Positions 2,361 to 60,834 of a DNA stretch of 64,000 bases are shown here, in pieces. Location: positions 14,444 through 78,443 of the forward strand of contig CAWGNL010000101.1 in assembly GCA_963823885.1 (NCBI GenBank). The letters are read 5' to 3'. The position numbers and the translations under genes were made by a program. Position 1 is the first letter of the stretch; every line of letters starts with the position of its first letter. The notes under the pieces were generated by a model that searched no databases, had not been told where the DNA came from, and saw nothing but the letters and a program-made list of their open reading frames with translations. Origin of the DNA: an uncultured bacterium (GTDB lineage Bacteria > Armatimonadota > UBA5829).

Positions 2361-2919
2361 GATTACACTGTCCTTTCATAAATTAAGATATGACATCCAC
2401 CCCATCGAGCATATTATGTCCCACCCGGGATATGTCGCTACGATCCTTGGCAATGTCATGTATCCGCATACGGATACGGATACGGCAGTAGATTAGCATA
2501 CATCAACTGCCTTGTCAACCACAAGGCGTGCAAAAGTTCACTACCATCGCATTGTTCGTTGTTTGCGTTGCTGTTATTTCGGGAAACCCTTTTCCCGAAA
2601 CGGCAAAAGTGAGACGCAGGAATTCGGCGTGGGTCGAGACCGTTTCGCTGTTACGGCGACCATCGCTCAGTAGCAGCCGCGATAGCGCGCTCCGGGTCGA
2701 TGCGGCGCAGGCGCTATAGTCGGTGACACATTGGCGGGCGGTTTCGGGAAAAGGGGTTTTCCGAAACAACGGAAACGGGATAATGCCGGACCAGCCTAAT
2801 TAATCCAGGCAAGCCCCCGGCTCTGCCAGGTGACTCGTAGCGTTTGACGCATGCGGAAGTCATCCGTCTAGCGCAACGTTACGCTCTTGTCACCCAGGCC
2901 GTAAATACGTCATTCTGAG

Positions 2920-3321
2920 CAAGTGACCTCGGCGTTGCCCCGGTTACATTAGAAAGAAACCAGCCCCGTTGTTTCGGGACACCCTTGTCCCGAAACCAGC
3001 AGTTTCTTAGGAGCGTCGGACCCCGCGCTGCGGAGTCACGTTATAAAGAAACTCACCCCGGCAGGCTATGCTTCGCGGGCGACTGCCCCGAAGCCGCCGG
3101 CATGGGAGGTTTCTTAGGAGCAAGTGACCTCGGCGTTGCCGCGGTTACATTAGAAAGAAACCAGCCCCCGGTGTTTCGGGAATCTTGTTCCCGAAACTGG
3201 GGAGTTTCTTAGGAGCGTCGGACCCCGCGCTGCGGAGTCACGTTATAAAGAAACTCACCCGGCAGGCTATGCTTCGCGGGCGACTGCCCCAAAGCCGGCG
3301 GCATGGAAGGTTTCTTAGGAG
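2920..3321. repeat. Tandem duplication, 2 x ~201 bp, built from nested palindromic modules
   Basis: CAAGTGACCTCGGCGTTGCC...GGTTTCTTAGGAG starts at 2920 and again at 3121. Each unit carries a GTTTCGGGA(N)TCCCGAAAC hairpin and TTTCTTAGGAG / AAGAAACTC motifs. An inverted partial copy lies at ~60940-61140. Confidence 0.8.
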
Positions 3322-3469
3322 GAACGAAGAATCTGCTTTTACTTTCCGCATGGATCTATGCCGTGACGTAAAAGCAGATCCTTCGCGTTCGCTCAGGATG
3401 ACGTGATTGCTGCGTTCTTGCCAAAGATGCAACGTTTGCCGCAACCCCTCAGGATTGTTGCCCTTCTCC

Positions 3470-9434: not shown

Positions 9435-9692
9435 AGCTGACATCCTTGTTGACGAATAGGCTGATTTGCGGGCCGACTTTGGCTGATGGTCCGCTACCAC
9501 GTTGTTCCGTGAGCAAGAATGGGGGACGCCTGGTAATGCTGCGAGTTTATTGCTGGGCAGAAGCATGGGTAAGATGACTCGTAACGCGCGGGGCCGGAAC
9601 CAACCGGCCGGTTGGAAGCGTATTGGGAAGAAGTTCTACTTGACTGCAGGGCGCATGGGCGGAATAATAAAGGTAGTGGTGGCTTAGCGCTG

Positions 9693-9834
9693 GCAGCGGG
9701 AACTCGAAGGCCTTGATGCCGGTGACTGCGCCGGATTGTCGTTCCGCCGCATATATGGGGCGGTGCCGTGCGTGCAGCGGGAACTCGAAGGCCTTGATGC
9801 CGGCGACTGCGTCGAATTGTCGTTCCCGCCGCAT
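9693..9834. repeat. Two tandem half-units of the GCAGCGGGAACTCGAAGG...TTGTCGTTCCCGCCGC palindromic family
   Basis: GCAGCGGGAACTCGAAGGCCTTGATGCCGG.GACTGCG.CG.ATTGTCGTTCC(C)GCCGCAT occurs twice, starting at 9693 and 9774. Full-length elements lie at 52391-52581 and 60643-60834. Confidence 0.75.
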
Positions 9835-32393: not shown

Positions 32394-32963
32394 CCTCCTC
32401 GACGCGCAGAACCCCACCGCTAGGATGCCAACGAGGAGGACTGCGATGCCAGACGGCTCCGGGACGACGGTCACGAGAAAGTAGTAACTGGGGCTGACGG
32501 TGGCCTGAAAAATGCCCAGGGACCCCCCTCCCTGCGCCCCGCCTTCCATTTGAGACCAGATACAGACGGGATCGCCCTCGGAGGGAGCGCTCCAGAGGCT
32601 CGCGTGCATCTGCGACGGGTCGTAGTCTGTGTAGCAGGCGAAGCTCATCACGGCGTTGGTGAACCCACCGCCGAACGTAAACGGCAGGGCCAAGCTGTCC
32701 GCGCTGCTTGCTGCAGTGGTGCTGGGGACCGTCACTATCCGCGCTTCGTTGTCAGGCGAGGTGGGGTCCGTTACTTGGAACGGGCCGTACGTGCCCACGA
32801 GCGAGGTGAAGTGACCGTCGAGGATGTCCGGTCCGTTGAGGAACGACAGTTGGACTCCGAATATGTCGACGTACCACCCGGCCTGTAGCGTGGCCGAGTT
32901 TGCTGCTGTCTGGAGGCCGATCATCGGCATGGCCGCCAGCAAAATGCACATTACTTTTTTCAT
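32394..32963 (-). CDS. PEP-CTERM protein, tandem paralogue 3 (no stop codon before the next gene)
   Basis: Start is MKKVMCILLAAMPMIGLQ (ATG complement 32961-32963, overlapping the upstream stop as ATGA). The C-terminus is VPEPSGIAVLLVGILAVGFCASRR. The frame then runs on into the signal peptide of the downstream protein (ORF-track end 32211). Confidence 0.75.
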
Positions 32964-33577
32964 CTTAGTTTCTCTCCTCTTGCCTGTAGTGTTGTGTCTG
33001 CGTAAGTCGTGCCGCTGGCCATGCAGAAGCCCGCAGCGCAAAGTCCCACAATGAGGGCGGCCATGCTCGACGGCTCCGGGACCACAGTGACCAGAAAGTA
33101 GTAATCAGGGCTGACGAGCGATTGGAAGATGTTCGGGTCGCCCGCCTGCGCCCCGCTCTGCATTTGCGACCAGATGCATACGGGTCCGCTTCCTGACGGA
33201 GCGCTCCACAGGCTCAGGTACATCTGAGAGGGGTCGTAGTCTGTCTGCCAGCTAACCTGCATGACAGCGTTGGTGAACCCACCGCCGAACGTAAACGGCA
33301 GGGCCAAGCTGTCCGCGCTGCTTGCTGCAGTGGTGCTGGGGACGGTAACAAATCGCGAGTAGTTCTTGATTGATCCGGGGTCGGTCACTTGGAACGGACT
33401 GTACGTGCCCGGAGGCGTGGAGAACTGGCCGTCGATGAGCGCCGGTCCGTCGAGAAACGACAGTTCCGCCCCGTATATGTTCACATACCACCCGGCCTGC
33501 AGCGTGGCCGAGTTCGCTGCTGCCTGGAGGCCGATCATCGGCATGGCCGCCAGCAAAATGCACATTACTTTTTTCAT
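32960..33577 (-). CDS. PEP-CTERM protein, tandem paralogue 2
   Basis: Runs from MKKVMCILLAAMPMIGLQAAANSATLQAGWYV... to VPEPSSMAALIVGLCAAGFCMASGTTYADTTLQARGEKLR. Both gene junctions are ATGA start/stop overlaps. Confidence 0.85.
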   Translation of the reverse strand: MKKVMCILLAAMPMIGLQAAANSATLQAGWYVNIYGAELSFLDGPALIDGQFSTPPGTYSPFQVTDPGSIKNYSRFVTVPSTTAASSADSLALPFTFGGGFTNAVMQVSWQTDYDPSQMYLSLWSAPSGSGPVCIWSQMQSGAQAGDPNIFQSLVSPDYYFLVTVVPEPSSMAALIVGLCAAGFCMASGTTYADTTLQARGEKLR

Positions 33578-34200
33578 CTTAGTTTCTCTCCTCTTGCCTG
33601 TAGTGTTGTGTCTGCGTAAGTCGTGCCGCTGGCCATGCAGAAGCCCGCAGCGCAAAGTCCCACAAGCATCCCCCAGAAGCCGGAGGGTTCGGGCACGACG
33701 GTGACTTCAAAGTAATAATTGGAGGAAGTCAGGGGATCGAGCACGGCGGTGTCCGCTCCCTGACTTCCGCTCTGAGTCTGCGACCAGATGCAGGCCGGGC
33801 CGCTCCCGTAGGGCTGCTTCCACAAGCTCAATTGCATCTGTGAAGCATCGTAGCTGCTTCCCCACCCGAACTCGATGAGGGCGTTCGTCAGACCCGCAGT
33901 CGTCGCGAGGGGGAGGGTAAGGCTGTCGGCGGGCCCTGCCTGCACTGTGGCGGGCACCGTGACGTAGCGCTCAATGTCGCTGTAATAGCCGCCCCCATCC
34001 GATACGAGGAACGGCCCAACCTGTCCTGTCGCGCCAGTGAAGTTGCCGTCGTAGAGCGTCAGTTGGCCGTTCTCATAGCACTCGGCCTCGACTCCGCCTA
34101 TGTTCACATACCACCCGGCCTGCAGCGTGGCCGAGTTCGCTGCTGCCTGGAGGCCGATCATCGCGATGGCCGCCAGCAGAACGCACATTACTTTTTTCAT
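33574..34200 (-). CDS. PEP-CTERM protein, tandem paralogue 1
   Basis: 208 aa, from MKKVMCVLLAAIAMIGLQAAANSATLQAGWYV... to VPEPSGFWGMLVGLCAAGFCMASG... An AGGAGGG RBS lies 8 nt upstream. Confidence 0.85.
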   Translation of the reverse strand: MKKVMCVLLAAIAMIGLQAAANSATLQAGWYVNIGGVEAECYENGQLTLYDGNFTGATGQVGPFLVSDGGGYYSDIERYVTVPATVQAGPADSLTLPLATTAGLTNALIEFGWGSSYDASQMQLSLWKQPYGSGPACIWSQTQSGSQGADTAVLDPLTSSNYYFEVTVVPEPSGFWGMLVGLCAAGFCMASGTTYADTTLQARGEKLR

Positions 34201-34274
34201 CTTGTTTTCCCTCCTATTGTTGTGTTGGTGTTGTAGGATGTCTTTCTCATTGTCTTGCTCCTTCTAAAGATCAC

Positions 34275-35571: not shown

Positions 35572-36266
35572 CCGGATCCGCCAAATTCGGCACGCCGTGC
35601 AATTTGCACAGGATTTCCAACTGCCGGGCGCCAAACCAGCAGCACGCCCGGCCCGCTTCGGAAATCCGGCCAGATGGTGGGCGGTGATTCGGAAGTCGCA
35701 ACCCAGGTAACTCTCGCGGCGGAAGGCGCCATGCGTGCAGCGGGAACTCGAAGGACTCATCCCAGGCATTGCCTCGAACTGTCGTTCCCGCCGCACAGTG
35801 GGCTTGTCGTTCCGGCGCATAGGTGGGTTGTACTCACGAACAGTGAGCACTTACCTACACATGTGTTTTTCGCGTTTTCCTTATTTCGCGCTTTCGCGAT
35901 TAGGTCCCTTCCGTCGCGTTGCAAATCAGGAGCTTGCTCAGAGCGTGTAAAGATAATGGGGTTTCACCCCAGACCCCACCAAAGGCTTCGCCTCTGGACT
36001 CCACCAGGAGCCAGTGGCCCCTGGACCCCCGACTCTTTTGTTCTTATTTTTGGGAGTTTTCCTCTATGTCCCCCCGCGGTGGGGTGGTCTTCGGTCAGAG
36101 GCTGACTCCCGGGGGACGTAGAGGAAAACTCCTACGGGTAGAAGCAAAAACCGGGAAGGTCAAGGAAACACCTGTTTCCTTGCGGGGTGCAGGGGCAGAG
36201 CCCTTGCCGGGAGTATGAGGGCGGAGCCCTCATATTTCTTTACACGTTCTCAGTGGCGCTACTCGT

Positions 36267-36999: not shown

Positions 37000-37290
37000 T
37001 CAGTACTCGCGCTCCTGGGGATCGAATATGTGTACCACGACATCGCCGTAGTCCACCAGCACCCACCGGGCCTGCGCGTACCCTTCGGCATGGTCCTTGC
37101 GCAAGCCCTCTTTCTTTCCATCCAGCAGCAGGGCGTCCGCGAGAGCCTTGATGTGCGTGTTGGATGTACCGCTGGCGATCACGAAGTAGTCCGCAATCAG
37201 CGTGCGGCCTCGAAGGTCGATGACATCAACATCGAGGCGCCTTCTTTTCCACGAGGATATTGCGTATTATTTCGAGCTTCGATTCAGTTT
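37000..37290 (-). CDS. rsfS: Ribosomal silencing factor RsfS (iojap-like); apparent frame break near 37243 and no clear start codon
   Basis: DVIDLRGRTLIADYFVIASGTSNTHIKALADALLLDGKKEGLRKDHAEGYAQARWVLVDYGDVVVHIFDPQEREY is typical RsfS. The expected N-terminal helix (LEIIRNILVEKKA) sits in another frame. Confidence 0.65.
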
Positions 37291-37444: not shown

Positions 37445-37761
37445 GAGCTCGAGCGCCCTCCCAGAAACAATTTGTTGTCGCTAAGGCGGATTCGACGGCG
37501 CACCGCCTTTGGGTTTTCCGCTTTATGGTTGTTAAGGGATGGCCGATGAGCTATACTTGCTTTGCCTGGGCGGAGGGTAGGGCAACGCTGGGGAGCTCTC
37601 CCGAGCCGACTCAGGTGTTGTTCAAGGGATGGGGGTGGAAATCTCCGCCCCCTCCAAATCATCCCTTAACAACCGAAAAGCGAAAAACCCGACCGCCTGC
37701 CTTGGTCAACTGCCACCGTAAGGTGGCCACTTTTCCCCAGCGAAGTCTGGAGAAAAGCGTA
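37445..37761 (+). repeat. 317-bp highly structured non-coding element, copy 1 (inserted into another repeat)
   Basis: Boundaries come from comparison with the uninterrupted host repeat at 54044-54210. Internal long helix: GGGTTTTCCGCTTTATGGTTGTTAAGGGATG ... CATCCCTTAACAACCGAAAAGCGAAAAACCC. It also has a GNRA-capped hairpin GCCACC-GTAA-GGTGGC. An inverted copy lies at 42708-43026. Confidence 0.75.
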
Positions 37762-37850
37762 GTATCTTACAACTGAAATCCGGGGTGGCCTTTGAAGTTC
37801 AGTACAGCTTGTATAGGATTTCAGTTGTAAGATACTAACACCCAATGCTG

Positions 37851-39098
37851 CTATTCGCTATAGTTTCTGCCCACGATCACCGTCACGTCGGCTGCGCCTG
37901 GCGCGTGCGGGACGTCTTCCCTGATATCGTCGCACTTGAGAAGCTTGGCTATCCGCTGCACGGGCTCCGTCTTGCCCTTGTGCGTGATGATGCAGCTTTG
38001 GTCATATTTGAAGTTCGGCGCGTTGCTGGTGCGCGTGACCTCGAAGCCGGCCTTCTTGAGCTGGTCCGCGACCTTATTGGCCATCCCGACAACCCCGCTG
38101 CCGTTCAGGACTTCCACCTTGGCGGAGTCCCCTCCGACGCTGCCCTGGAAAAGCAGATAAGTATTGGCCACCTGAGCTATCTGCTCATAGTCGGGAAGCC
38201 AGTAGCTGGCGTCGTTCTTTCTGCCGGAGCCGCCGGGAAGCAAGACCATCGCTATCTGCTCCGGCTTGATATCCTTGAAATAATCCGCCATTCCCGCCCA
38301 GTCGGACATTTGCATGTCGGAGTATAGGTATTTGCAATCGTAGGCCGTTGCGAGCACCTGCATCCGTTCTCGCTTTGTCGGCATGCTCAGCACGCGGTTT
38401 GCCAAGGCCCGCATGAATACTGCTGGCGAATGGTCCGGCCCGCGGGCACTTTCTTGCCACCCACCATCCTGAACCCGCTGTCGCCGATGCCGGATCGTGC
38501 CGGAACCGCACGTAACCTTCGGCCTGAACTCCGTTCAGGAGCTGCTTTTGGGGGCCGGCATGCGATTTATGTACAGGTCCTGATGGCGGTCCGAGTAGCG
38601 CATATCTTCGTCGACCACAATATATACGCCGCCGACCAGGTCCACCATGCCCCTCAGGCCGGAGCACGTCATATCGACATAATAGTCGATGGGCACGCCC
38701 ACCAGGTCCTGCACTACCTGCTCCGCAAGCTTCGGGCCGCCGATGGCGTTTGCCGCGTTGATTTTGTGCGTCCCGTGACCGGGTATCTCTACCCGGGTGT
38801 CGCGGGGGATGGAAATAGCTCGCACCTCCCTGGTCTGCGTGTCTATCCCGAACAACACGAGGCTGTCCGAAAGGCCGTGTCCGCCATGCTTAGCCCCCGC
38901 GGAGTTGTCCTCGCCAACCATCAGGATTCTGACGTATCTTCCCTTGCCTTGGAACGGCGCGGCGAACAACCCGCCCCAGCCGGTGTGCAAGCTGGTCATG
39001 GAAGGCAGCATCACGGCAAGAAAAGTCCCGCCCGCAATGCCTACCGCCGAGCCAAGCAGAATCACCAGAATTACGGCTATCCAGGACGTACCTTTCAT
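37851..39098 (-). CDS. LytR-CpsA-Psr (LCP) family protein; three or more frame changes between ~38420 and ~38560
   Basis: The N-terminal anchor and LCP core are in ORF 38535..39098 (MKGTSWIAVILVILLG...ILMVGEDN...LSDSLVLFGIDTQTREVRAISIPRDT...). The segment QLLNGVQAEGYVRFRHD is in a second frame and GDSGFR...RTIRQQ in a third. The LytR_C-like end is in ORF 37851..38414. Confidence 0.75.
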
Positions 39099-40640
39099 CA
39101 GTTTACCTTTCTGTCCAAGCCGAGCGCCGGAGAATTGCCGAGGTACCGGGAATCTTGTTCCCGATACGTGATTAGTTTCGGGGACAGATTCCCGAAATAC
39201 CCAATTACGGCTATCCAGGACGTACCTTTCATCAGTTTACCTTTCTGTCCAAGCCGAGCGCCGGAGAATTTGCCGGTGTATCGGGAATCTTGTTCCCGAT
39301 ACGTGATTAGTTTCGGGAACAAGATTCCCGAAATACCCAATTACGGCTATCCAGGACATTACCTTTCATCAGTTTACCCTTCTGTCCAAGCCGAGCGCCG
39401 GAGAAATTGCCGGTGTATCGGGAATCTTGTTCCCGATACGTGATTAGTTTCGGGAACAAGATTCCCGAAACACCCAAATTACGGCTATCCAGGACGTACC
39501 TTTCATCAGTTTACCTGCCGGTGTATCGGGAATCTTGTTCCCGATACGTGATTAGTTTCGGGAACAAGATTCCCGAAATACCCAATTACGGCTATCCAGG
39601 ACGTACCTTTCATCAGTTTACCTTTCTGTCCAAGCCGAGCGCCGGAGAATTTGCCGGTGTACCGGGAATCTTGTTCCCGATACGTGATTAGTTTCGGGAA
39701 CAAGATTCCCGAAATACCCAATTACGGCTATCCAGGACTTACCTTTCATCAGTTTACCTTTCTGTCCAAGCCGAGCGCCGGAGAATTTGCCGGTGTAACG
39801 GGAATCTTGTTCCCGATACGTGATTAGTTTCGGGGACAAGATTCCCGAAATACCCAATTACGGCTATCCAGGACGTACCCTTTCATCAGTTTACCTTTCT
39901 GTCCAAGCCGAGCGCCGGAGAATTTGCCGGTGTATCGGGAATCTTGTTCCCGATACGTGATTAGTTTCGGGAACAAGATTCCCGAAATACCCAATTACGG
40001 CTATCCAGGACGTACCTTTCATCAGTTTACCCTTCTGTCCAAGCCGAGCGCCGGAGAATTTGCCGGTGTATCGGGAATCTTGTTCCCGATACGTGATTAG
40101 TTTCGGGAACAAGATTTCCCGAAACACCCGAAAAACTCTTCAACGCATTCCGGTATCAGATACCTTTGCCGGTGTATCGGGAATCTTGTTCCCGATACGT
40201 GATTAGTTTCGGGAACAAGATTCCCGAAATACCCAAAATACCCAATTACGGCTATCCAGGACGTACCTTTCATCAGTTTACCCTTCTGTCCAAGCCGAGC
40301 GCCGGAGAATTTGCCGGTGTATCGGGAATCTTGTTCCCGATACGTGATTAGTTTCGGGAACAAGATTCCCGAAACACCCAAATTACGGCTATCCAGGACG
40401 TACCTTTCATCAGTTTACCTGCCGGTGTATCGGGAATCTTGTTCCCGATACGTGATTAGTTTCGGGAACAAGATTCCCGAAATACCCAATTACGGCTATC
40501 CAGGACGTACCTTTCATCAGTTTACCCTTCTGTCCAAGCCGAGCGCCGGAGAATTTGCCGGTGTATCGGGAATCTTGTTCCCGATACGTGATTAGTTTCG
40601 GGAACAAGATTCCCGAAACACCCAAACACCCAAACACCCA
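39099..40640. repeat. 1.5-kb tandem array: 10 units of [double-hairpin palindromic core + duplicated 5' end/upstream region of the LCP gene]
   Basis: CCTTTCAT (complement of the LCP ATG) recurs at 39230, 39367, 39504, 39611, 39747, 39884, 40020, 40271, 40408 and 40515. Units are ~134-137 bp or 107 bp, plus one 251-bp unit. The core is GCCGGTGTATCGGGAATCTTGTTCCCGATACGTGATTAGTTTCGGGAACAAGATTCCCGAAATACCC. Confidence 0.9.
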
Positions 40641-42625
40641 AAATTTAGAAATTCGTGCTTACCGTTCCGGTACAATCCCTTTTCCCTAATAAACTCTTCA
40701 ACGCATTCCGGTATCAGATACCTTATCGACTTTCCGGACCGCACCCGCTCGCGCAATTCGGTCGACGAAATGTCCACCGCGGGCATCCGAAGCCTGACAA
40801 TTCGCCCGGCAAAGTCTTCGGGCACCGCCGGGAGCGCATCCGAACACGGCCTGCTTGCGGCGACTATGATTGCCATCTCCGCCAAAGCGTGAGGCTCGCG
40901 CCAGGACATAAGGTTCGCGGCCTCGTCCTCGCCCATCAATAGATAGACGCGAGTTCCCTCGCCATAATCCGCAATTATTTGCCTTACAGTATCTATTGTA
41001 TACGACACGCCGCCGCGGTCAAGCTCCAGCGTGGATGCCTCGAAGTGAGCGTTGCCTTCCACGGCCATACGGACCATCTCGTGGCGCAATCGAGCGTCGG
41101 CGATCGGCTGTCCCGACTTGTGGGGCGGGTCCGCCGCCGTCACGAAAATCACCCGTTCCAGGCCCAACTGCTCCCACGCCTGTTCGGCAAGTATCAGATG
41201 GCCATAGTGAATGGGGTCGAACGTGCCCCCCATCAATCCGATGCTTCGTGTGCGCCCGGGTGTTTCGGGATTTGAGGAGCGAGCACAGTCGTTTGGCATG
41301 CGGCGCAAACGTCGTATTCGCTCCGGAAATCCCGAAACAGTCACGCTGGGCTTTCGCACTTCCATTATCCCCTCGAGCTGCCCGCTGCCCGTAACCACGT
41401 ACTTGTAGGTAGTTATCTCTTCCAGCCCCATCGGCCCGCGAGCGTGGAGTTTCTGGGTCCTGATGCCCATCTCGGCTCCCTTACCAAATTCGTACCCATC
41501 GGTGAAGCGAGTCGACACATTCACGAACACCGCGGCGGCATCCACTTCCTTGCTAAAACGGACGGCCGCGCTGTAATCTTCGGTGACAATCGCCTCCGAG
41601 TGGCCGCTGCCGTATTTGGCGATGTGCGCTATCGCCTCCCCCACTCCGGAGACCACCTTGACCGCCAGGATCAGGTCCAGGTATTCGGTTTCCCAGTCTT
41701 CCTCGGTCGCCTCCGTCAGGCCCGGCACGATGGCGCGCGTTTTCTCGCAGCCGCGAATCTCGACACCGGCGTCGGCCAGGCGCTTACATATATTTGGAAG
41801 AAAGTCAGCGGCAATTTGTTCGCTCACCAGCAAAGTTTCCGCGGCATTACACACGCTGGGGTTCTGTACTTTCGCATTGAATGCGATCTCCCCGGCCATT
41901 CTCGGGTCCGCTTTAGTGTCGACGTAGACGTGACAGTTGCCGTCGCCGTGCTCGATTACCGGGATCGTCGAGTTCTCGACCACCGTCCGAATGAGGCCCT
42001 TGCCCCCGCGCGGGATCAGGCAGTCGATGTAGGCTTTCATATTCATGAGCTCGCGCGCCGCAGCGCGGTCGGTGGTCTCGATGATTTGCACCGCTCCTTC
42101 GGGCACGCCCGCGCACGAAGCAGCCTCGCGGATAAGCCGCGCGATCGCGAGGTTCGAGTTTATCGCCTCGGACCCGCCGCGCAATATGACCGCATTGCCG
42201 GCTTTCAGGCACAGCGCGGCGGCATCGGCGGTGACGTTGGGCCGGGACTCATAAATAATGCCGATCACACCGATCGGCACCCTGACCTTGCGGACTTCCA
42301 TCCCGTTGGGCCGGATATAGCCCTCGATGGTCTCGCCAACGGGATCGCGCAGGCCCGCTATCTGCCGCACGCCATCAGCCATCTGGGCGATCTTTTTATC
42401 GGTAAGCTCCAGGCGCTTTAGCATGGCCCCGCTCAGGCCGGCGGCTTGGGCCGCGGCGAGGTCCCTTTTATTAGCTTCAAAAATGGCGGCCTTATTCGCC
42501 TCGAATGCATCCGCCATCGCAAGCAGGGCTTTGTCCTTCACGCTGGTTCCCAGCACGGCCATCTCGCGCGCCGCGGCCTTCGCCTGCTTGCATTTGAGTT
42601 CTACTTCGCTCACTTCCGACTCCAC
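40592..42625 (-). CDS. proA: Single 677-codon ORF: gamma-glutamyl-phosphate reductase (ProA, ~41372-42625) read through a repeat-derived linker into nicotinate-nucleotide adenylyltransferase (NadD, ~40650-41251)
   Basis: ProA: ...IGIIYESRPNVTADAAALCLKAGNAVILRGGSEA...CNAAETLLV...TYKYVVTGSGQLE. NadD: IGLMGGTFDPIHYGHL...ISSTELRERV...IRYLIPECVEEFIREKGLY. The linker VTVSGFPERIRRLRRMPNDCARSSNPETPG is encoded by a palindromic repeat (41258-41345). The last ~20 codons also run into repeat DNA. Confidence 0.8.
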   Translation of the reverse strand: MESEVSEVELKCKQAKAAAREMAVLGTSVKDKALLAMADAFEANKAAIFEANKRDLAAAQAAGLSGAMLKRLELTDKKIAQMADGVRQIAGLRDPVGETIEGYIRPNGMEVRKVRVPIGVIGIIYESRPNVTADAAALCLKAGNAVILRGGSEAINSNLAIARLIREAASCAGVPEGAVQIIETTDRAAARELMNMKAYIDCLIPRGGKGLIRTVVENSTIPVIEHGDGNCHVYVDTKADPRMAGEIAFNAKVQNPSVCNAAETLLVSEQIAADFLPNICKRLADAGVEIRGCEKTRAIVPGLTEATEEDWETEYLDLILAVKVVSGVGEAIAHIAKYGSGHSEAIVTEDYSAAVRFSKEVDAAAVFVNVSTRFTDGYEFGKGAEMGIRTQKLHARGPMGLEEITTYKYVVTGSGQLEGIMEVRKPSVTVSGFPERIRRLRRMPNDCARSSNPETPGRTRSIGLMGGTFDPIHYGHLILAEQAWEQLGLERVIFVTAADPPHKSGQPIADARLRHEMVRMAVEGNAHFEASTLELDRGGVSYTIDTVRQIIADYGEGTRVYLLMGEDEAANLMSWREPHALAEMAIIVAASRPCSDALPAVPEDFAGRIVRLRMPAVDISSTELRERVRSGKSIRYLIPECVEEFIREKGLYRNGKHEFLNFGCLGVWVFRESCSRN

Positions 42626-42707: not shown

Positions 42708-43026
42708 GTAAGAGACTACGCTTTTCCCCAGACTTCGCTGGGGAAAAGTGGCCACCTTACGGTGGCAGTTGACCAAGGCAGGCGGTCGGGTTTTTCGCTT
42801 TTCGGTTGTTAAGGGATGATTTGGAGGGGGCGGAGATTTCCACCCCCATCCCTTGAACAACACCTGAGTCGGCTCGGGAGAGCTCCCCAGCGTTGCCCTA
42901 CCCTCCGCCCAGGCAAAGCAGGTATAGCTCATCCGCCATCCCTTAACAACCATAAAGCGGAAAACCCAAAAGCGGTGCGCCGTCGAATCCGCCTTAGCGA
43001 CAACAAATTGTTTCTAGGAGGGCGCT
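42708..43026 (-). repeat. 317-bp highly structured non-coding element, copy 2 (inverted relative to copy 1)
   Basis: Near-identical reverse complement of 37453-37770. It lies in the proB-proA intergenic region. Confidence 0.75.
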
Positions 43027-43032
43027 AAGCGC

Positions 43033-44151
43033 CTAAACTCCCAGCACCATGTTATCCCTATGAATCACCTCGTCGTAATCCTTGCGCCCGAGAATCTTGG
43101 GTATTTCGCTCGACCGCTTTCCTCTGATAAGCTGGATTTCCGAGGCGGCATAATTCGTGAGGCCCCTGGCGATCCGGCATGAATCTTCATCGACCACCGA
43201 TACCAGGTCGCCCACGTCGAAGCCGCCCTCGCAGCCGGTGATTCCCGCCGCAAGCAGGCTCGTTCCCCTGCCGATAAGCGACTTCTTCGCGCCCTCGTTC
43301 ACCGTCACGCTGCCTTTCACCTGGCCGCCGAACGCCAGCCACCGCTTCCAGTGGCTCAGCCCGTTGAGGCTCGCAAGAAACAGCGTGCCGGCAGGCTTTC
43401 CCGCCACGACATCCACGATCACGTTGGGCCGCGCCGCGCCCGCTATCACCACGCGCACGCCGGAATTGACGGCGATCTTGGCGGCTTCGATCTTGCTCTT
43501 CATTCCACCGCTGCCGCTCGTGCCCACGCCGCCGGCAAGCGCTTCGATATCCGGGGTAATCGATTCCACCCGCTGGAGCAGCGCGCATGGACCGCCGAGC
43601 CTGGGGTCCGAATCGTACAAGCCGTCCACATCGGAGAGGTTCAACAGCACATCGGCGTCGACGCACGCGGCCACAAGCGCGGCCAGGGTGTCATTCTCTC
43701 CAAACTTGATCTCCTCGGTCGCCACGGTGTCGTTTTCGTTGACTATGGGCACCGTGCCGAACCGGAGCAGCGTGCGGAGGGTATTGCGGGCGTTTAGATA
43801 CCTTACGCGGTCGTTTACGTCGTCGCGGGTGAGGAGCACCTGCGCGGGGATAACTCCGTGCCGCGAAAACGCTTCCGCGTAAAGGCTCATCAGCGAACTC
43901 TGCCCGATGGCCGCGCTGGCCTGCAGATCGGGGATGTTTCGGGGACGCTTCGCTAGACCCAGCCGTTCCATTCCGGCCCTGATAGCGCCCGACGAAACCA
44001 GGATCACGCCCTTTCCCCGGTTCTTGACCTCGGCGAGCTGCCCCACCAGCCCCGCCACCTTCGCGCGGTCGAGTGCACCGGAGTCGCCCACGAGGCTGCT
44101 CGTGCCCACCTTGACGACTATTCGATTGACTGATCTGCTAGTATCCTTCAT
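43033..44151 (-). CDS. proB: Glutamate 5-kinase ProB (with PUA domain)
   Basis: MKDTSRSVNRIVVKVGTSSLV...SSGAI..G...VPIVNENDTVATEEIKFGENDTLAALVA... I place the start at ATG complement 44149-44151. The longer ORF-track N-terminus (to 44313) is translated palindromic repeat DNA. Confidence 0.88.
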   Translation of the reverse strand: MKDTSRSVNRIVVKVGTSSLVGDSGALDRAKVAGLVGQLAEVKNRGKGVILVSSGAIRAGMERLGLAKRPRNIPDLQASAAIGQSSLMSLYAEAFSRHGVIPAQVLLTRDDVNDRVRYLNARNTLRTLLRFGTVPIVNENDTVATEEIKFGENDTLAALVAACVDADVLLNLSDVDGLYDSDPRLGGPCALLQRVESITPDIEALAGGVGTSGSGGMKSKIEAAKIAVNSGVRVVIAGAARPNVIVDVVAGKPAGTLFLASLNGLSHWKRWLAFGGQVKGSVTVNEGAKKSLIGRGTSLLAAGITGCEGGFDVGDLVSVVDEDSCRIARGLTNYAASEIQLIRGKRSSEIPKILGRKDYDEVIHRDNMVLGV

Positions 44152-44441
44152 CAGAAAACTCGAACTCCATGCCGTGAATGCGAACGACGTCGCCGTGCTT
44201 ACCGGGTGTTTCGGGAATCTTGTTCCCGAAACTAAGTGCGTATCGGGAACAAGATTCCCGATACACCGGCAACTAAGTGCGTATCGGGAACAAGATTCCC
44301 GATACACCGGCAACGACGTCGCCGTGCTTAAGTGCGTATCGGGAACAAGATTCCCGATACACCGGCTTGACTGATCTGCTAGTATCCTTCATCAGAAAAC
44401 TCGAACTCCATGCCGTGAATGCGAACGACGTCGCCGTGCTT
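44126..44441. repeat. 75-bp perfect direct duplication of the obg-stop/proB-start junction, flanking a 166-bp insert of palindromic hairpins
   Basis: 44126-44200 and 44367-44441 are identical (TTGACTGATCTGCTAGTATCCTTCATCAGAAAACTCGAACTCCATGCCGTGAATGCGAACGACGTCGCCGTGCTT). The insert holds one GTTTCGGGAATCTTGTTCCCGAAAC hairpin and three TATCGGGAACAAGATTCCCGATAC hairpins. Confidence 0.9.
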
Positions 44442-45662
44442 TGCCCCTAAGTCACGCAGGCTCTTTATTACTCCCGTTCTCTCCAGTTGGCGATGCAGCC
44501 GGCGCAAGGCATATTCGTTATTCACATCGGTGCGCATTACCATGACCTCGACGGGCCGGCCCTCGACGACAAACTCCCCGTCGCCGGTCTTTCGCGCTTC
44601 CCACGAGTCCGGGGCCGGCTCGACCGTGAAGCGCACCGCTTTCTCCACGGCGACTTCCTCGCGGGGAAGCTCTTCGAGCAAAGCCGCGACCCTGTACAAA
44701 AGAGGCTGGATGCCATCGCCTGCCAGCGCCGATATTTCGAAGACTTCCAGCCCGCGGCCCTCGAGTTCGACCTCGAGCCGATCGGCGATCTCCCTGGCCC
44801 CAGGCACATCTATCTTGTTGAGCGCGACTATCTGGCCGAGACCGGAGAGCTTCTCGCTGTGGGCCCTGAGTTCGTCGTTAATGGCATCGAAATCGTGCAT
44901 CGGCTCGCGCCCGCTGTAGCCGGAAACGTCGATCAGGTGGACCAGCAGGCGCGTCCTCTCGATGTGGCGAAGGAACTGATGCCCCAGCCCGACGCCTTCG
45001 TGCGCCCCCTCGATAAGGCCGGGCATATCCGCCACCACAAACGAGCTATCCGCCACTTTCACCACGCCCAGGTTCGGCGCCAGGGTAGTAAACGGATAAT
45101 CCGCTATCTTGGGCTTGGCGGCTGAAATCTTGGATATGAGAGTCGATTTTCCAACGCTCGGGTAGCCGATGAGACCCACATCCGCCAGTAGTTTCAGTTC
45201 GAGGACCACTGTGACCTCGTCGATCGGCTCGCCCTTTTCGGCGAACTTGGGGGTCTGCAAAGTGGAGGTCGAAAAGCTCGCATTTCCTCTGCCGCCACCG
45301 CCGCCCTTCGAGGCGACATACTCCTGACCACCGGTTATGAGGTCAGCGGCGGGCTTTTCATCGCCGGCCACATAAACGATCGTGCCGACCGGAACGCGCA
45401 AAACCAGGTCCTCGCCGTTGCGCCCGTGCCTGTCGTTGGGGCCGCCATCCCCTCCCCGCTCGGCCTTATAGTGTTTCTGATAGCGCAAATCGACCAGGGT
45501 GCCAAGCTTGGCATCGGCGCGCAGGATCACACTGCCGCCCCGACCGCCGTCGCCGCCCGAAGGTCCCCCACGCGGCACGAACTTCTCGTGGCGAAAGGCA
45601 ACGATGCCATCGCCCCCGTTACCACCTTTCACGAAGATTTCAACCCGGTCTACAAATTGCAT
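44379..45662 (-). CDS. obg: GTPase Obg/CgtA
   Basis: 427 aa: MQFVDRVEIFVKGGNGGDGIVAFRHEKFVPRGGPSGGDGGRGGSV (Obg fold), G-domain GYPSVGKSTL...DMPGLIEGAHEG..LG, NKID, and an OCT-like C-terminus. Confidence 0.93.
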   Translation of the reverse strand: MQFVDRVEIFVKGGNGGDGIVAFRHEKFVPRGGPSGGDGGRGGSVILRADAKLGTLVDLRYQKHYKAERGGDGGPNDRHGRNGEDLVLRVPVGTIVYVAGDEKPAADLITGGQEYVASKGGGGGRGNASFSTSTLQTPKFAEKGEPIDEVTVVLELKLLADVGLIGYPSVGKSTLISKISAAKPKIADYPFTTLAPNLGVVKVADSSFVVADMPGLIEGAHEGVGLGHQFLRHIERTRLLVHLIDVSGYSGREPMHDFDAINDELRAHSEKLSGLGQIVALNKIDVPGAREIADRLEVELEGRGLEVFEISALAGDGIQPLLYRVAALLEELPREEVAVEKAVRFTVEPAPDSWEARKTGDGEFVVEGRPVEVMVMRTDVNNEYALRRLHRQLERTGVIKSLRDLGAKHGDVVRIHGMEFEFSDEGY

Positions 45663-46040
45663 ATTTTTACGATTGGAAATCTAATCGCGAAAACGCGAAA
45701 TAGTGCGTTTCGGGAAAAGGGTTTCCCGAAACAACAAACAACAAATGACGCTCCGTCTGCATATCCGGCGTACGTGCCACGCGTGCAGCGGGAACTCGAA
45801 GGACTTATGCCAGACGTTGCCTCGGATTGTCGTTCCCGCCGCATAGTGGGCGATTGTGCCCGATTCCAGCGATTCCCCCTCACCCCAGCCCTCTCCCATC
45901 CGGGAGAGGGAGCCCAAAGTGCCGAGTCCAGCGCCGCAATCCTGGACGCATCGTTGCGCCAGAACTCCCCTCGCCCTCACGGGAGAGGGGCCGGGGGTGA
46001 GGGTGGAACGCCGCAAATTGGAAACAGCGCGTTTCCCCGC

Positions 46041-50003: not shown

Positions 50004-50350
50004 GAAAGCGGAAGGTGGAAAGTGGAAGGCCCGGAACTTCCGCCGGCACGCCGCCGCCGGCCAGCCCGCCCTCACCTTGTCCCAGGCCCCTCTGCTCATG
50101 TAAGAGATCAGTCTTTGTGAGAATGGCAGCCATCACTATTCGGCGGGAACGACAAATCGAGCGTCTGCTTCAACCCGGCGCCTTCGAGTTCCCGCCGCAT
50201 AGGTGGGTTGTACTCACGATCCGTGAGCAGTTATCTGCTCATCGTCCCATTGCTTGAATGTCCTTATGCCTGTATAATGCCTGAAAGCGCGGCTTCGGGC
50301 TTTCCGCTCTCCGCTTTCCACTAAACGCTATTCTCAAAGGGAGAAAGACC

Positions 50351-52159: not shown

Positions 52160-52390
52160 GTTCAGGCAGCCACCGCACCATATAGCGGAGTCGTCTTTAA
52201 GACACTGATCGGTCAAGTAGGCCGATCCGTGGCCATATCGAAGCACGGTTACAGGAGGCCGCCCTTCGATACACCTAGCCTGATCTCGGCACTCAGGGCT
52301 GGCGGGTTCCGAATTCCCGTGGAACTGGACTCACTCTAAAGGTTGGGAAGGGATCCGTTCCCTAACCTTGAAGGGGGCAACCCTTACTTT

Positions 52391-52581
52391 GCGGCGGGAA
52401 CGACAAATAGAGCGTCCGCTTCGACCCGGCGCCTTCGAGTTCCGGCTGCACGCATAGCACTCGCGCCGGGCGGATGCAGACCGCTCCTCTCTCGCGGGCA
52501 GAAGGCGCCACGCGTGCAGCGGGAACTCGAAGGGCTTCATGCCAATGGTTGTCTCGCCTTGTCGTACCCGCCGCATAGGGG
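52391..52581. repeat. Full-length ~190-bp nested-palindrome element (outer arms GCGGCGGGAACGACAA / TTGTCGT(A/T)CCCGCCGC; inner arms CCTTCGAGTTCC.GCTGCACGC / GCGTGCAGCGGGAACTCGAAGG)
   Basis: The nested arms can be read directly. A second full copy lies at 60643-60834. Half copies lie at 9693-9834, ~27232-27320, ~35731-35830, ~45775-45850 and ~50125-50225. Confidence 0.8.
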
Positions 52582-52973
52582 GAGCTGCCGTTCTCATGAA
52601 ACTGAGCTGTTCCGTGAGAACGTCCGCCAGAGGACCTCAAAAAAACAGGCTTCGTCGGTATACACCGCGAAGCCCGAGGGAAGGAGGAAAAAGATGGTTT
52701 GTTTGTGCCACTATAATCATTCCATGAGATTCTCCGAAGTCACCAAAGTTTTTTAGCAATCGCGAAGTTTTTTTTCAGCAAAGGGCAGGAATAAGTCCGG
52801 TGGCTTGCTAACTCATGTGCGGGCGGAGACGTTCTGTTTTCGGCAAGGACGCAGCAAACATGTCTGAGCACTCCCGCGAAGAATCTGCTTTTAGCTTACG
52901 GGCGGGATTCGCGCGGCAAGCAAAAGCAGATTCTTCGTCGTGCCTCTTCCTAAGAAACCTCTCCGGTTTCGGG

Positions 52974-53546
52974 AAAAGGGTTTCTCGAAACAACGCGCAC
53001 GCCGGGGCGGTTTCTTAAGGAAACTGCCGCGCAAAATCGCGGTCGGGCGCTCAAAATGACATGGTTTAGGGCCTGGATACATCTTCCCCGATGTTTCGGG
53101 ATTTCGGGCTGATCAGATCCGACGAGCCAGCCTAGGCCAAAATCCCGAAACATCCAAAATGACCTCGCGAAGTTTCGGGATTTCCGGAGCGATTACGACG
53201 TCTGCGCTGTATGCCGAACCGCCGTGCTCGCTCCTCAAATCCCGAAACACCGGGCGTGGAAAAGGGTTTCTCGAAACAACGGGCATGCCGGGGCGGTTTC
53301 TTAAGGAAACTGCCGCGCAAAATCGCGGTCGGGCGCTCAAAATGACATGGTTTAGGGCCTGGATACATCTTCCCCGATGTTTCGGGATTTCGGGCTGATC
53401 AGATCCGACGAGCCAGCCTAGGCCAAAATCCCGAAACATCCAAAATGACCTCGCGAAGTTTCGGGATTTCCGGAGCGATTACGACGTCTGCGCTGTATGC
53501 CGAACCGCCGTGCTCGCTCCTCAAATCCCGAAACACCGGGCGTGGA
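52974..53546. repeat. Tandem duplication, 2 x 286 bp, composed of several GTTTCGGGA...TCCCGAAAC-type hairpins
   Basis: AAAAGGGTTTCTCGAAACAAC starts at 52974 and again at 53260. The units are near-identical through ...CCCGAAACACCGGGCGTGGA. Confidence 0.85.
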
Positions 53547-54043: not shown

Positions 54044-54210
54044 CCTAAAGCGGCGTAGCCGCAACCAAGAAGGCCATCGCCGGAAAATCAATACGGCCTT
54101 TCCGTAATTCGGAAGGTCGGTGGTTTCTTCTTACGTATCTTACAACTGAAATCCGAGGTCACATATCAAAGTTCAGTACAGCTTGTATAGGATTTCAGTT
54201 GTAAGATACT
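54044..54210. repeat. 167-bp repeat, uninterrupted copy (empty site for the 317-bp element)
   Basis: CCTAAAGCGGCGTAGCCGCAACCAAGAAGGCC...GGAAGGTCGGTGGTTTCTTCTTAC|GTATCTTACAACTGAAATCC...GGATTTCAGTTGTAAGATACT. The copy at 37354-37836 is the same sequence split by 317 bp at the marked point. Confidence 0.8.
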
Positions 54211-56923: not shown

Positions 56924-57216
56924 AAGTTAGAGGTAAGAGGTTAGACCGAAGGCAATAGCTGACGGGTCTAACCTCCTACCTCCGACATGTTACTCGGCTT
57001 GGCCGGAACCGGATGCAACCGAAGGCTGGATCGTTTCGGGATTTCCGGAGCGACTGCGACGCTTGTGCCATATGCAAACGACCGTGCTCGCTCCTCAAAT
57101 CCCGAAACACCGGTATACCTGACAGGTCTAACCTCTTACCATCTAGAGATTCCACCTGGGTGGCGATTCGGAAATCGCCACCCAGAAAAGAACATCTAAC
57201 TTCGAGGGATAGCACG

Positions 57217-59296: not shown

Positions 59297-59441
59297 CTAG
59301 TGTCTACTTGCATAAATAACTGATAGCATTCTTGCCGGTGTATCGGGAATCTTGTTCCCGATACGCACTTAGTTTCGGGAACAAGATTCCCGAAACACCC
59401 GGTACAGCGTTCTATCAATCAATTATGCAACTAAGCACTAG
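59297..59441. mobile_element. 145-bp MITE-like element, copy 2 (inverted relative to 1239-1383)
   Basis: CTAGTGTCTACTTGCATAA...double-hairpin core...TTATGCAACTAAGCACTAG. It is near-identical to the reverse complement of copy 1. Confidence 0.75.
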
Positions 59442-60602: not shown

Positions 60603-60642
60603 AGGCGTAAGCGCTCACTCTTCACGAGTGCAGCCCACGTAT

Positions 60643-60834
60643 GCGGCGGGGACGACAAGTCGAGCGTCCGCTTCATCCCGGCGCCTTCGAGTTCCCGCCG
60701 CACGCATAGCACTCACGTCGGGCAGATGCAGACCATGCCCTCTCTCGCGGGCAGAAGGCGCCACGCGTGCAGCGGGAACTCGAAGGGCTTTGTGCCTTGT
60801 GATTATCTCGACTTGTCGTTCCCGCCGCATAGTG
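60643..60834. repeat. Full-length ~190-bp nested-palindrome element, second copy
   Basis: GCGGCGGGGACGACAAGTCGAGCGTCCGCTTCATCCCGGCGCCTTCGAGTTCCCGCCGCACGC...GCGTGCAGCGGGAACTCGAAGGGC...CTTGTCGTTCCCGCCGC. Confidence 0.8.

Follow-up and report, generated by a model that had tools for sequence, protein, structure and literature searches.

A tandem REPIN array carrying repeated gene starts between nadD and an LCP gene in an uncultured Armatimonadota bacterium

Introduction

How does the start of one bacterial gene come to stand ten extra times in front of the gene itself? The question is raised by a 64,000-nucleotide stretch of DNA (hereafter the window) from an uncultured bacterium of the phylum Armatimonadota (UBA5829; GenBank assembly GCA_963823885.1, contig CAWGNL010000101.1, positions 14,444 to 78,443 of the forward strand). 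In this window, a 1.5-kb tandem array sits between nadD and a gene, here called LCP, whose product carries LytR_cpsA_psr and LytR_C domains. Each array unit contains a palindromic core, which we identify as a REPIN, that is, a doublet of repetitive extragenic palindromic (REP) sequences of the kind linked to REP-associated tyrosine transposases (RAYTs). Our analysis indicates that the array is probably a tandemly amplified REPIN cluster, grown in a formerly overlapping nadD-stop/LCP-start junction, with the gene-start copies carried along as passengers.

Structure of the array

The array extends over 39099-40642 on the minus strand and is made of twelve 68-nt double-REP palindromes alternating with spacers of host sequence. 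Tandem Repeats Finder reported periods of 136-137, 244 and 273 across 39069-40626, with scores of 804-1320. The gene-start motif CTGATGAAAGG occurs 11 times, once at the real LCP start (39098) and at 10 extra starts, and successive copies of the gene-start segment are spaced 134, 137, 137, 107, 136, 137, 136, 251, 137 and 107 nt apart from start to start. These results confirmed the original prediction of repeated gene starts joined to a palindromic core and reproduced its series of unit lengths exactly, including the 107-nt short units and the 251-nt spacing. The predicted anatomy, in which the core is accompanied by a ribosome-binding site (RBS), an ATG and 10 LCP codons, with short units and a nadD fragment, was also right. 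The number of copies, given as 10, holds for the extra LCP starts, but the palindromic cores number 12; likewise, the array and both neighboring genes do lie on the same strand, which is the minus strand.

The 12 units are each 105-145 nt long and run head-to-tail, and their REPIN columns are nearly invariant. The spacers are of three types. Nine units carry a 68-nt spacer (S) corresponding to LCP -38 to +30, that is, from 38 nt 5' of the LCP ATG through codon 10 (...GCCGTAATT); two (U2 and U9) carry a 40-nt short form, which begins 9 nt 5' of the ATG; and one (U4) carries a 34-nt nadD fragment. Both ends of S carry AATT|CT.

At its nadD-proximal end, the array opens with a head stutter of about three copies of GGGTGTTT (40624-40642; Tandem Repeats Finder period 8, 3.4 copies, 40616-40642). 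U1 (40488-40623) follows with a 68-nt REPIN and a 68-nt S of the G haplotype, one of two haplotypes described below. In U2 (40380-40487), the REPIN is joined to the 40-nt spacer (LCP -9 to +30 plus one T), and in U3 (40235-40379) to an S of the G haplotype and a duplicated head fragment, GGGTATTT. U4 (40130-40234) pairs its REPIN with the copy of the nadD 3' region and lacks a gene start. U5 (39993-40129; G haplotype) and U6 (39856-39992; A haplotype) are both REPIN plus S, and in U6 a 1-nt insertion after ATGAAAGG shifts the frame of the decoy start. U7 (39720-39855; A haplotype) has two substitutions in its REPIN and a C>A change in codon 4 within S, and U8 (39584-39719; A haplotype) is again REPIN plus S. 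U9 (39476-39583) has the same form as U2 and lies within a 904-nt higher-order repeat. U10 (39339-39475; G haplotype) has a 1-nt insertion in codon 4 within its S, and U11 (39203-39338; A haplotype) is REPIN plus S. Finally, U12 (39069-39202) combines the most degenerate REPIN with the genuine spacer, whose RBS and ATG are contiguous with the rest of LCP; this final S alone runs on into the gene (...GTAATT-CTGGTGATT...).

The nadD fragment at 40133-40166 matches 40691-40724 in 34 of 34 positions, with no extension on either side, in agreement with the original prediction. The 251-nt spacing that contains it had been read as a single unit carrying a gene start. It is really two units, U4 and U5, the first of which (REPIN plus nadD fragment) has no gene start.

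The palindromic core

Each unit opens with a 68-nt element, GGGT[G/A]TTTCGGGAATCTTGTTCCCGAAAC-TAATCACG-TATCGGGAACAAGATTCCCGATACACCGGCA on the minus strand, which consists of two 30-nt REPs (CCGGTGT[A/T]TCGGGAATCTTGTTCCCGA[T/A]AC) placed tail to tail with their GGTGT heads outward. The 17-nt REP core, CGGGAATCTTGTTCCCG, occurs 33 times in the window, compared with 0.02 occurrences expected by shuffling, and REPs or REPINs of the array type are also present at five loci outside the array (1276-1348, 3177, 44200-44368, 59332-59404 and 61048). RNA folding of the units yielded a single stem of about 24 bp that spans both REPs, with minimum free energies (MFE) of -57 to -62 kcal/mol and z-scores of -5.2 to -6.6; none of 200 shuffles folded as well. 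The LCP-proximal REPIN, in U12, is the most decayed and the weakest (MFE -43 kcal/mol, z -1.9, versus -57 kcal/mol and z -5.2 for an internal unit). The core had been described as two hairpins; the palindromic doublet is indeed there, but the computed fold is one long hairpin across both REPs rather than two small ones.

Among the matches listed in an exact-match scan, the 30-nt REP with the GGTGT head was found in several Armatimonadota metagenome-assembled genomes (MAGs) other than the source genome. At one of these loci (L001), inverted REPs with heads outward, at 2199 (+) and 2834 (-), flank a 177-aa open reading frame (ORF; 2281-2814) in which HVH and YxHxNP motifs occur. Its scores exceed the curated cutoffs of the NCBIfam model for RAYTs, NF047646 (85.5 bits, cutoff 80), and of Pfam Y1_Tnp, PF01797 (24.9, cutoff 23), and partial homologues of the ORF adjoin REPs at L008 and L009. 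Because its two inverted REPs fold as one long hairpin, the core is a REPIN, and because these REPs are dispersed in the window and in the MAGs and flank a RAYT at L001, it belongs to the REP/REPIN-RAYT family.

Other identities for the core and its surroundings were set aside. A CRISPR array was rejected, as the spacers are repeated copies of adjacent host genes and the repeat is a 68-nt REP doublet. At the gathering threshold, an Rfam search of the whole window returned four tRNAs only. Core matches from bins of Haliangiales, Kofleriaceae, Beijerinckiaceae and Bacteroidetes have no GGTGT head and were taken as unrelated to the REP family; the myxobacterial matches at L006 and L025 share flanks in the manner of homologous genes. 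A fixed REPIN target motif was also rejected, as AATT(CT) fits the nadD/LCP locus only. For a MITE, terminal inverted repeats and a short target-site duplication of constant length would be expected at every copy; the first REPIN can be read as flanked on both sides by AAATT/AATT, the other copies have no common flank and the cluster at obg/proB (see below) has no AATT.

Two features of related palindromes were recorded in addition. The REPINs at 1276-1348 and 59332-59404 are nested, in opposite orientations, in a larger common palindrome (flanks AGTTGCATAATTGATTGATAGAA...AAGAATACTATTAGCTATTTATGCAAGTAG). Palindromes with the stem GTTTCGGGA...TCCCGAAAC but differing loops, for example GTTTCGGGAAACCCTTTTCCCGAAAC and GTTTCGGGACACCCTTGTCCCGAAAC, occur at 1095, 2601, 2741, 2971, 45707, 52966 and other positions, which suggests either several REP subfamilies or compensatory evolution of one.

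Origin of the spacer

The genes around the array, all on the minus strand, were identified by homology to a relative's proteins: obg (45662..44382), proB (44151..43036), proA (42595..41369), nadD (41233..40664) and rsfS (37233..37003), after which a TPR gene comes next. LCP (37854..39098) is collinear with its counterparts in relatives, with a homology span of 39074..37854. The named best matches of ProA are from Armatimonadota, the closest being 86% identical. In the closest relatives with genomic context, the operon reads rplU-rpmA-(serpin)-obg-proB-proA-nadD-LCP-rsfS. At L031, L032 and L034, there is a 1-4-nt overlap between the nadD stop and the LCP start, and at L035 a 50-nt gap separates them; obg and proB overlap by 17 nt in relatives. 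No repeat was found at nadD/LCP in the relatives examined (L031, L032, L034 and L035).

We considered the possibility that the 38 nt 5' of the ATG in S are part of a mobile element. This was rejected, since these 38 nt occur only in the array and are absent from the remaining window and from 35 fetched loci; judged by this distribution, the upstream part of S is local host DNA. A 21-nt LCP-start sequence had one metagenome match, in an unrelated HD-GYP regulator gene, and we regard it as a chance match. When S is read in the nadD frame, CTAAATT followed by CTCCGG...AACTGATG gives ...EFLNSPALGLDRKVN and a stop, and the TGA overlaps the ATG of LCP by 1 nt, just as at L031. As this geometry matches, S appears to be the former junction of the nadD tail and the LCP start, and the first REPIN would have been inserted in the nadD tail at ...AAATT|CTCC.

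Junctions and growth of the array

At this locus, REPIN ends meet unique DNA in seven distinct junction types, all of them exactly at the REPIN outer heads: nadD tail|T-head, A-head|S(-38), A-head|S(-9), A-head|nadD 40724, nadD 40691|T-head, and LCP+30|T-head in two variants, AATT|GGGTAT (8 copies) and AATTT|GGGTGT (2 copies). Two of these types are what one insertion would leave behind, and the remaining five are one-sided. A head variant (A in place of G) unites all eight AATT|GGGTAT junctions and is found in no other genomic copy, so these junctions are copies of one founding event.

The units also retain a record of later exchange. Across the nine long units, perfect linkage holds between two variable sites that lie about 90 nt from each other (4 G/G and 5 A/A; Fisher P ~0.008), with a GGGTGT head accompanying AGAAGGG in U1, U3, U5 and U10, and a GGGTAT head accompanying AGAAAGG in U6, U7, U8, U11 and U12. 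Furthermore, a 300-nt block of three units is repeated 904 nt away (39360-39659 = 40264-40563, 99% identity). The linked haplotypes and this higher-order repeat indicate later unequal exchange, and the linkage of variants across the long units means that the array is not a simple assembly stutter. Amplification by homologous exchange also accords with U12, the terminal unit, being the most diverged. The earlier proposal of repeated duplication at one gene junction finds support.

The following sequence of events would account for these observations. One REPIN would first have inserted in the nadD tail, about 38 nt 5' of the LCP ATG. An illegitimate joining would then have fused LCP +30 (GTAATT) to the outer head of this REPIN, producing a tandem of [REPIN + 68 nt]. 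The joining could have been the work of a RAYT, which would nick the REP head and transfer a strand there, or of slippage at the AATT(CT) microhomology common to the nadD tail and LCP codons 9-11, and these two options account for the founding junction equally well. By a third route, which could give the same product, a REPIN would insert transiently at LCP+30 on one of two sister chromatids and then undergo exchange with the REPIN already resident on its sister. As the duplicated 68 nt hold the RBS, ATG and 10 codons, the last copy would keep LCP intact. Unequal homologous exchange or replication slippage between units of about 136 nt would subsequently have expanded and reshuffled the array to 12 REPINs, and additional joinings at REPIN ends would have given the short units and the nadD-fragment unit. 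Hence, a few REPIN-end-specific joinings would make the new junctions, and homologous exchange or slippage would do most of the amplification. Selection would retain those products that keep the whole upstream gene end and the whole downstream start, so that S spans the junction.

Related duplications at other loci

A similar arrangement is found in the same operon at obg/proB, also on the minus strand. A 75-nt segment contiguous with obg (44367-44441) recurs contiguous with proB, which starts at 44151 (44126-44200); the copies are identical at 75 of 75 positions, with no extension. Between them, at 44201-44366, lies a REP cluster composed of a REP, a 17-nt piece identical to the opening of the 75-nt segment, a second REP and a REPIN. 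From obg, the segment holds the final 20 codons and the stop; this part shares 14 nt with the proB part, which consists of the RBS, the ATG and the first nine codons. Thus, the duplication leaves both genes whole and creates a decoy proB start at about 44392. A further case is present in a relative (L032, 9590-9750), in which three head-to-tail REPs lie 3' of rsfS, each with a piece of the rsfS 3' end that includes the TAG stop.

Tandem duplication of flanks was observed at three of the six window loci with array-type REPs (the array, obg/proB and 2917-3324); at 12 other loci, no flank duplications around REPs were found. Its recurrence at obg/proB and in L032 suggests that the process of flank duplication is general.

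The locus at 2917-3324 differs in detail, being a tandem of a 201-nt composite element in which copy 1 has a loop variant, GGGACACCCTTGTCCC, and copy 2 an array-type REP. A single relative of this composite lies at about 61048, and GTTTCTTAGGAG motifs recur inside it.

The role of a transposase

An alternative that we consider possible, and clearly the less likely one, assigns the growth of the array mainly to repeated RAYT events. The enzyme would make one nick at the REP head and another at a distal host site, tens of nucleotides off; one-ended strand transfer, or nick, extension and rejoining, would then generate duplications of 68-75 nt, and this junction-preserving insertion would allow REPINs to settle in gene junctions that overlap and are translationally coupled, with neither gene destroyed. 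Such a mechanism would fit the two independent junction duplications in one operon (68 nt at nadD/LCP and 75 nt at obg/proB), the third duplication, of a gene 3' end, in L032, the position of every secondary breakpoint exactly at a REP head and the AATT|CT at both ends of S. [quoted passage not shown] However, eight of the 10 LCP+30|REPIN junctions are identical by descent, as shown by their GGGTAT head variant, and the haplotype blocks and the 904-nt higher-order repeat favor homologous exchange as the main amplifier. In addition, neither the breakpoints at obg/proB and L032 nor the sequences beside other REP copies show a common motif, the window holds no RAYT, and the AATT microhomology explains the founding junction just as well in an enzyme-free manner.

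A broader version of this proposal, which we rate as rather unlikely, combines "safe landing", in which RAYT cutting and rejoining to distal host sites would make the 68-75-nt junction duplications, with a function of the array, variable in length, as a rheostat for LCP, a cell-wall gene. If it is true, these loci would be in vivo footprints of nick-extend-rejoin amplification, so far shown only in vitro.

Several points weigh against the account that we prefer, that is, an inserted REPIN amplified together with the old gene junction mainly by homologous exchange. Its weakest point is the order S-REPs-S at obg/proB, where no REP lies left of the first copy, which misfits a simple (REPIN+S)n; one more event would be required, such as loss of the first REPIN by precise excision. 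Precise REPIN excision has been documented (PMC3116915). Second, a protein search found no genome of the same species (closest ProA 86%), and an empty or single-copy ancestral site is something that we infer rather than have observed. Third, a tblastn search of the 64-kb window with the L001 RAYT revealed no RAYT (best E = 0.63), and involvement of a RAYT at the array is suggested by analogy with the relatives. The lack of a RAYT within 64 kb is not surprising. Fourth, the array REP is without the GTAG or CGTC terminal tag that marks the well-studied REP superfamilies; its head is GGTGT and its stem begins GT[A/T]TCGGG. Finally, single-base differences between units and the exact copy number are uncertain in an error-prone assembly.

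Decoy starts and expression of LCP

The ORFs that begin at the 10 decoy starts encode 20 aa (four cases), 35 aa (two), 43 aa (two), 44 aa and 58 aa, and 1-nt insertions follow two of the starts. The original prediction of the same 43-aa decoy in the long units did not hold, as only two of the 10 decoy starts encode it, one of them with two substitutions. This heterogeneity of length and frame suggests no selection on the decoy peptide, and the gene-start copies look like passengers rather than a selected device.

In the region 38800-40900, no sigma-70-like promoter was found, although this consensus may not apply to Armatimonadota, and no terminator-like site was found on the sense strand, all nine matches being antisense. 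Given these two results, LCP is probably transcribed by read-through, behind a predicted 1.5-kb leader with 12 hairpins of about 24 bp and 10 decoy starts. Translational coupling of nadD and LCP would have been lost. Our best guess is that LCP expression is lowered or uncoupled rather than switched. The last spacer runs directly into the gene, and the number of units therefore cannot shift the LCP frame, which makes classical on/off phase variation unlikely.

The integrity of LCP itself is in doubt. To match its relatives, the gene needs three same-direction frameshifts within about 200 nt (38440-38570, in the region 38380-38640). The TPR gene needs one (at about 36584), and rsfS is without its first 25 or so codons. 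These frameshifts reflect either a noisy long-read assembly or gene decay, and LCP may be a pseudogene. For the same reason, single-base differences between units should not be over-read; the single-base indels may be assembly errors.

REPs are known as mRNA stabilisers and attenuators in enterobacteria, and the array could likewise be a selected module that tunes LCP, whether by stabilising the nadD message, attenuating read-through, titrating ribosomes at decoy starts, relaying reinitiation or serving as a copy-number rheostat. We consider this improbable. In its favor, an RBS-like GAAAGG or GAAGGG and an ATG are retained in each unit, and the apparent lack of a promoter in or near the array makes read-through into LCP probable. 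Moreover, the stop of the decoy ORF lies no more than 4 nt from the next ATG in five of the 10 cases, and the last decoy overlaps the true ATG (TGATG). A termination-reinitiation relay is thus physically possible, but this spacing is a result of the unit geometry. The variable and in part frameshifted decoy ORFs, the independence of the LCP frame from copy number, the lack of a sense-strand terminator-like site and the possible pseudogene status of LCP all argue against a regulatory module, as does the lack of a spacer at nadD/LCP in relatives. The operon is also full of other repeats, suggesting tolerance rather than design.

The idea that the array, or most of its copies, stems from mis-assembly of a repeat-rich metagenomic region draws on the MAG origin of the 78.6-kb contig, on the clustered frameshifts in nearby genes, which suggest noisy long-read data, and on the failure to find a second assembly of the species, but it is very improbable given non-identical units whose linked variants define haplotypes, three spacer types with a higher-order repeat, and similar small clusters at another locus as well as in an independent MAG from short reads.

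Comparison with known systems

The original prediction took known REP/BIME or MITE arrays to be free of duplicated host gene starts. This premise fails, since tandem REPIN or BIME clusters with flanking DNA have been published for Pseudomonas fluorescens SBW25, other Pseudomonas and E. coli. The SBW25 clusters (Bertels & Rainey 2011, PMC3116915) are also head-to-tail, with near-identical units that each consist of a REPIN and its flanks (f1-REPIN-f2). In SBW25, as here, REPINs are dispersed as singlets as well, and they are linked to a RAYT that has the same REPs on either side. Sixteen tandem REPIN clusters have been described there, usually of two units, the largest with four REPINs over about 700 bp, in addition to 12-REP tandem arrays (PMC3116915); the present array, by contrast, has 12 REPINs over 1.5 kb. 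Unlike in SBW25, the co-amplified flank is a functional gene junction, comprising the upstream tail with the RBS, the ATG and 10 codons. The host also differs, belonging to the Armatimonadota, and the REP head is GGTGT and not of the GTAG type.

E. coli BIME-2 (Ton-Hoang et al. 2012, PMC3333891) provides a second parallel, namely local tandem amplification of REP units with variable linkers. TnpA_REP cuts away from the hairpin and rejoins strands, which would give breakpoints at REP ends such as those in the array, and local amplification driven by RAYTs is backed by in vitro enzyme data and models (PMC3333891). However, BIME linkers are short family-specific motifs, whereas the array linkers are host gene sequence; array growth looks largely like homologous unequal exchange, and the array REP family is known from sequence alone.

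The REP families surveyed by Di Nocera et al. 2013 (PMC3733652) similarly carry flanks of variable length and overlap stop codons or ORF ends, to which nadD reading into the first REPIN corresponds. Those families are GTAG/CGTC-tagged, in contrast to ours, and duplication of a gene start is not described there.

Finally, the mycobacterial interspersed repetitive units of variable-number tandem repeat type (MIRU-VNTR) (Supply et al. 1997, reviewed in PMC3184786) form tandem units within operons, between co-transcribed genes, and the array is likewise expected to be a copy-number-variable locus. MIRU unit ORFs overlap the stop and start of their neighbors; in the array, five of 10 decoys end close to the next ATG, the last overlaps the true one, and the ORFs are heterogeneous. 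MIRU units differ in measuring 40-100 bp, compared with 137 nt for the array unit, and in being one sequence at about 40 loci, without a REPIN core. In the array, only the palindrome is dispersed, and the gene-junction part is unique to the locus.

Other repeats in the window

The operon contains further repeats. A 77-nt palindromic element (GTTTCGGGATTTGAGGAGCGAGCAC...AAATCCCGAAAC) at 41262-41338, between proA and nadD, is read through in frame. This read-through gives an apparent 677-aa ProA-NadD fusion (40592..42625, minus strand), seen in no relative; the fused ORF continues into the first REPIN, in whose linker it ends at 40592. In relatives, ProA is a separate 415-aa protein. Further copies of the 77-nt element lie at 53172-53248, 53458-53534 and 57033-57108.

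A 319-nt inverted repeat pair (37452-37770 and 42708-43026, 98% complementary) occupies the LCP|rsfS and proB|proA gaps and so brackets a 4.9-kb segment of proA, nadD, the array and LCP. It has no Rfam match and a partial third copy near 54044-54133, and the pair could mediate inversion of the segment.

Farther away, a 286-nt non-coding tandem duplication (52972-53543; two copies, 99%) is built from two other palindromic element types. At least six copies were recorded of a dispersed family, GCAGCGGGAACTCGAAGG...TTGTCGTTCCCGCCGCA, that has no relation to the array core (9663-9834, 35707-35803, 45755-45851, 50139-50231, 52390-52576 and 60642-60829). At 32406-34219, about three tandem copies of a 614-623-nt unit, with 72-94% identity, are probably repeated coding-sequence domains.

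Significance

The array is distinctive in its size, its phylum, its untagged REP family and its passenger: the DNA carried along is a functioning gene junction, and the operon holds a sister case. To our knowledge, it is among the largest ordered REPIN clusters. It extends the REPIN-RAYT system to the Armatimonadota, with a REP family that lacks GTAG/CGTC tags.

For annotation, the locus is a caution. The array yields 10 false gene starts and a false C-terminal extension of NadD and, with the 77-nt repeat, a false ProA-NadD fusion. It is at the same time a candidate VNTR marker for the lineage.

For the biology of REPINs, the operon offers a readable record of cluster formation, with one full insertion, five secondary junctions at REPIN heads and haplotyped units. 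The array and the obg/proB case are together natural substrates for asking whether RAYTs drive local amplification.

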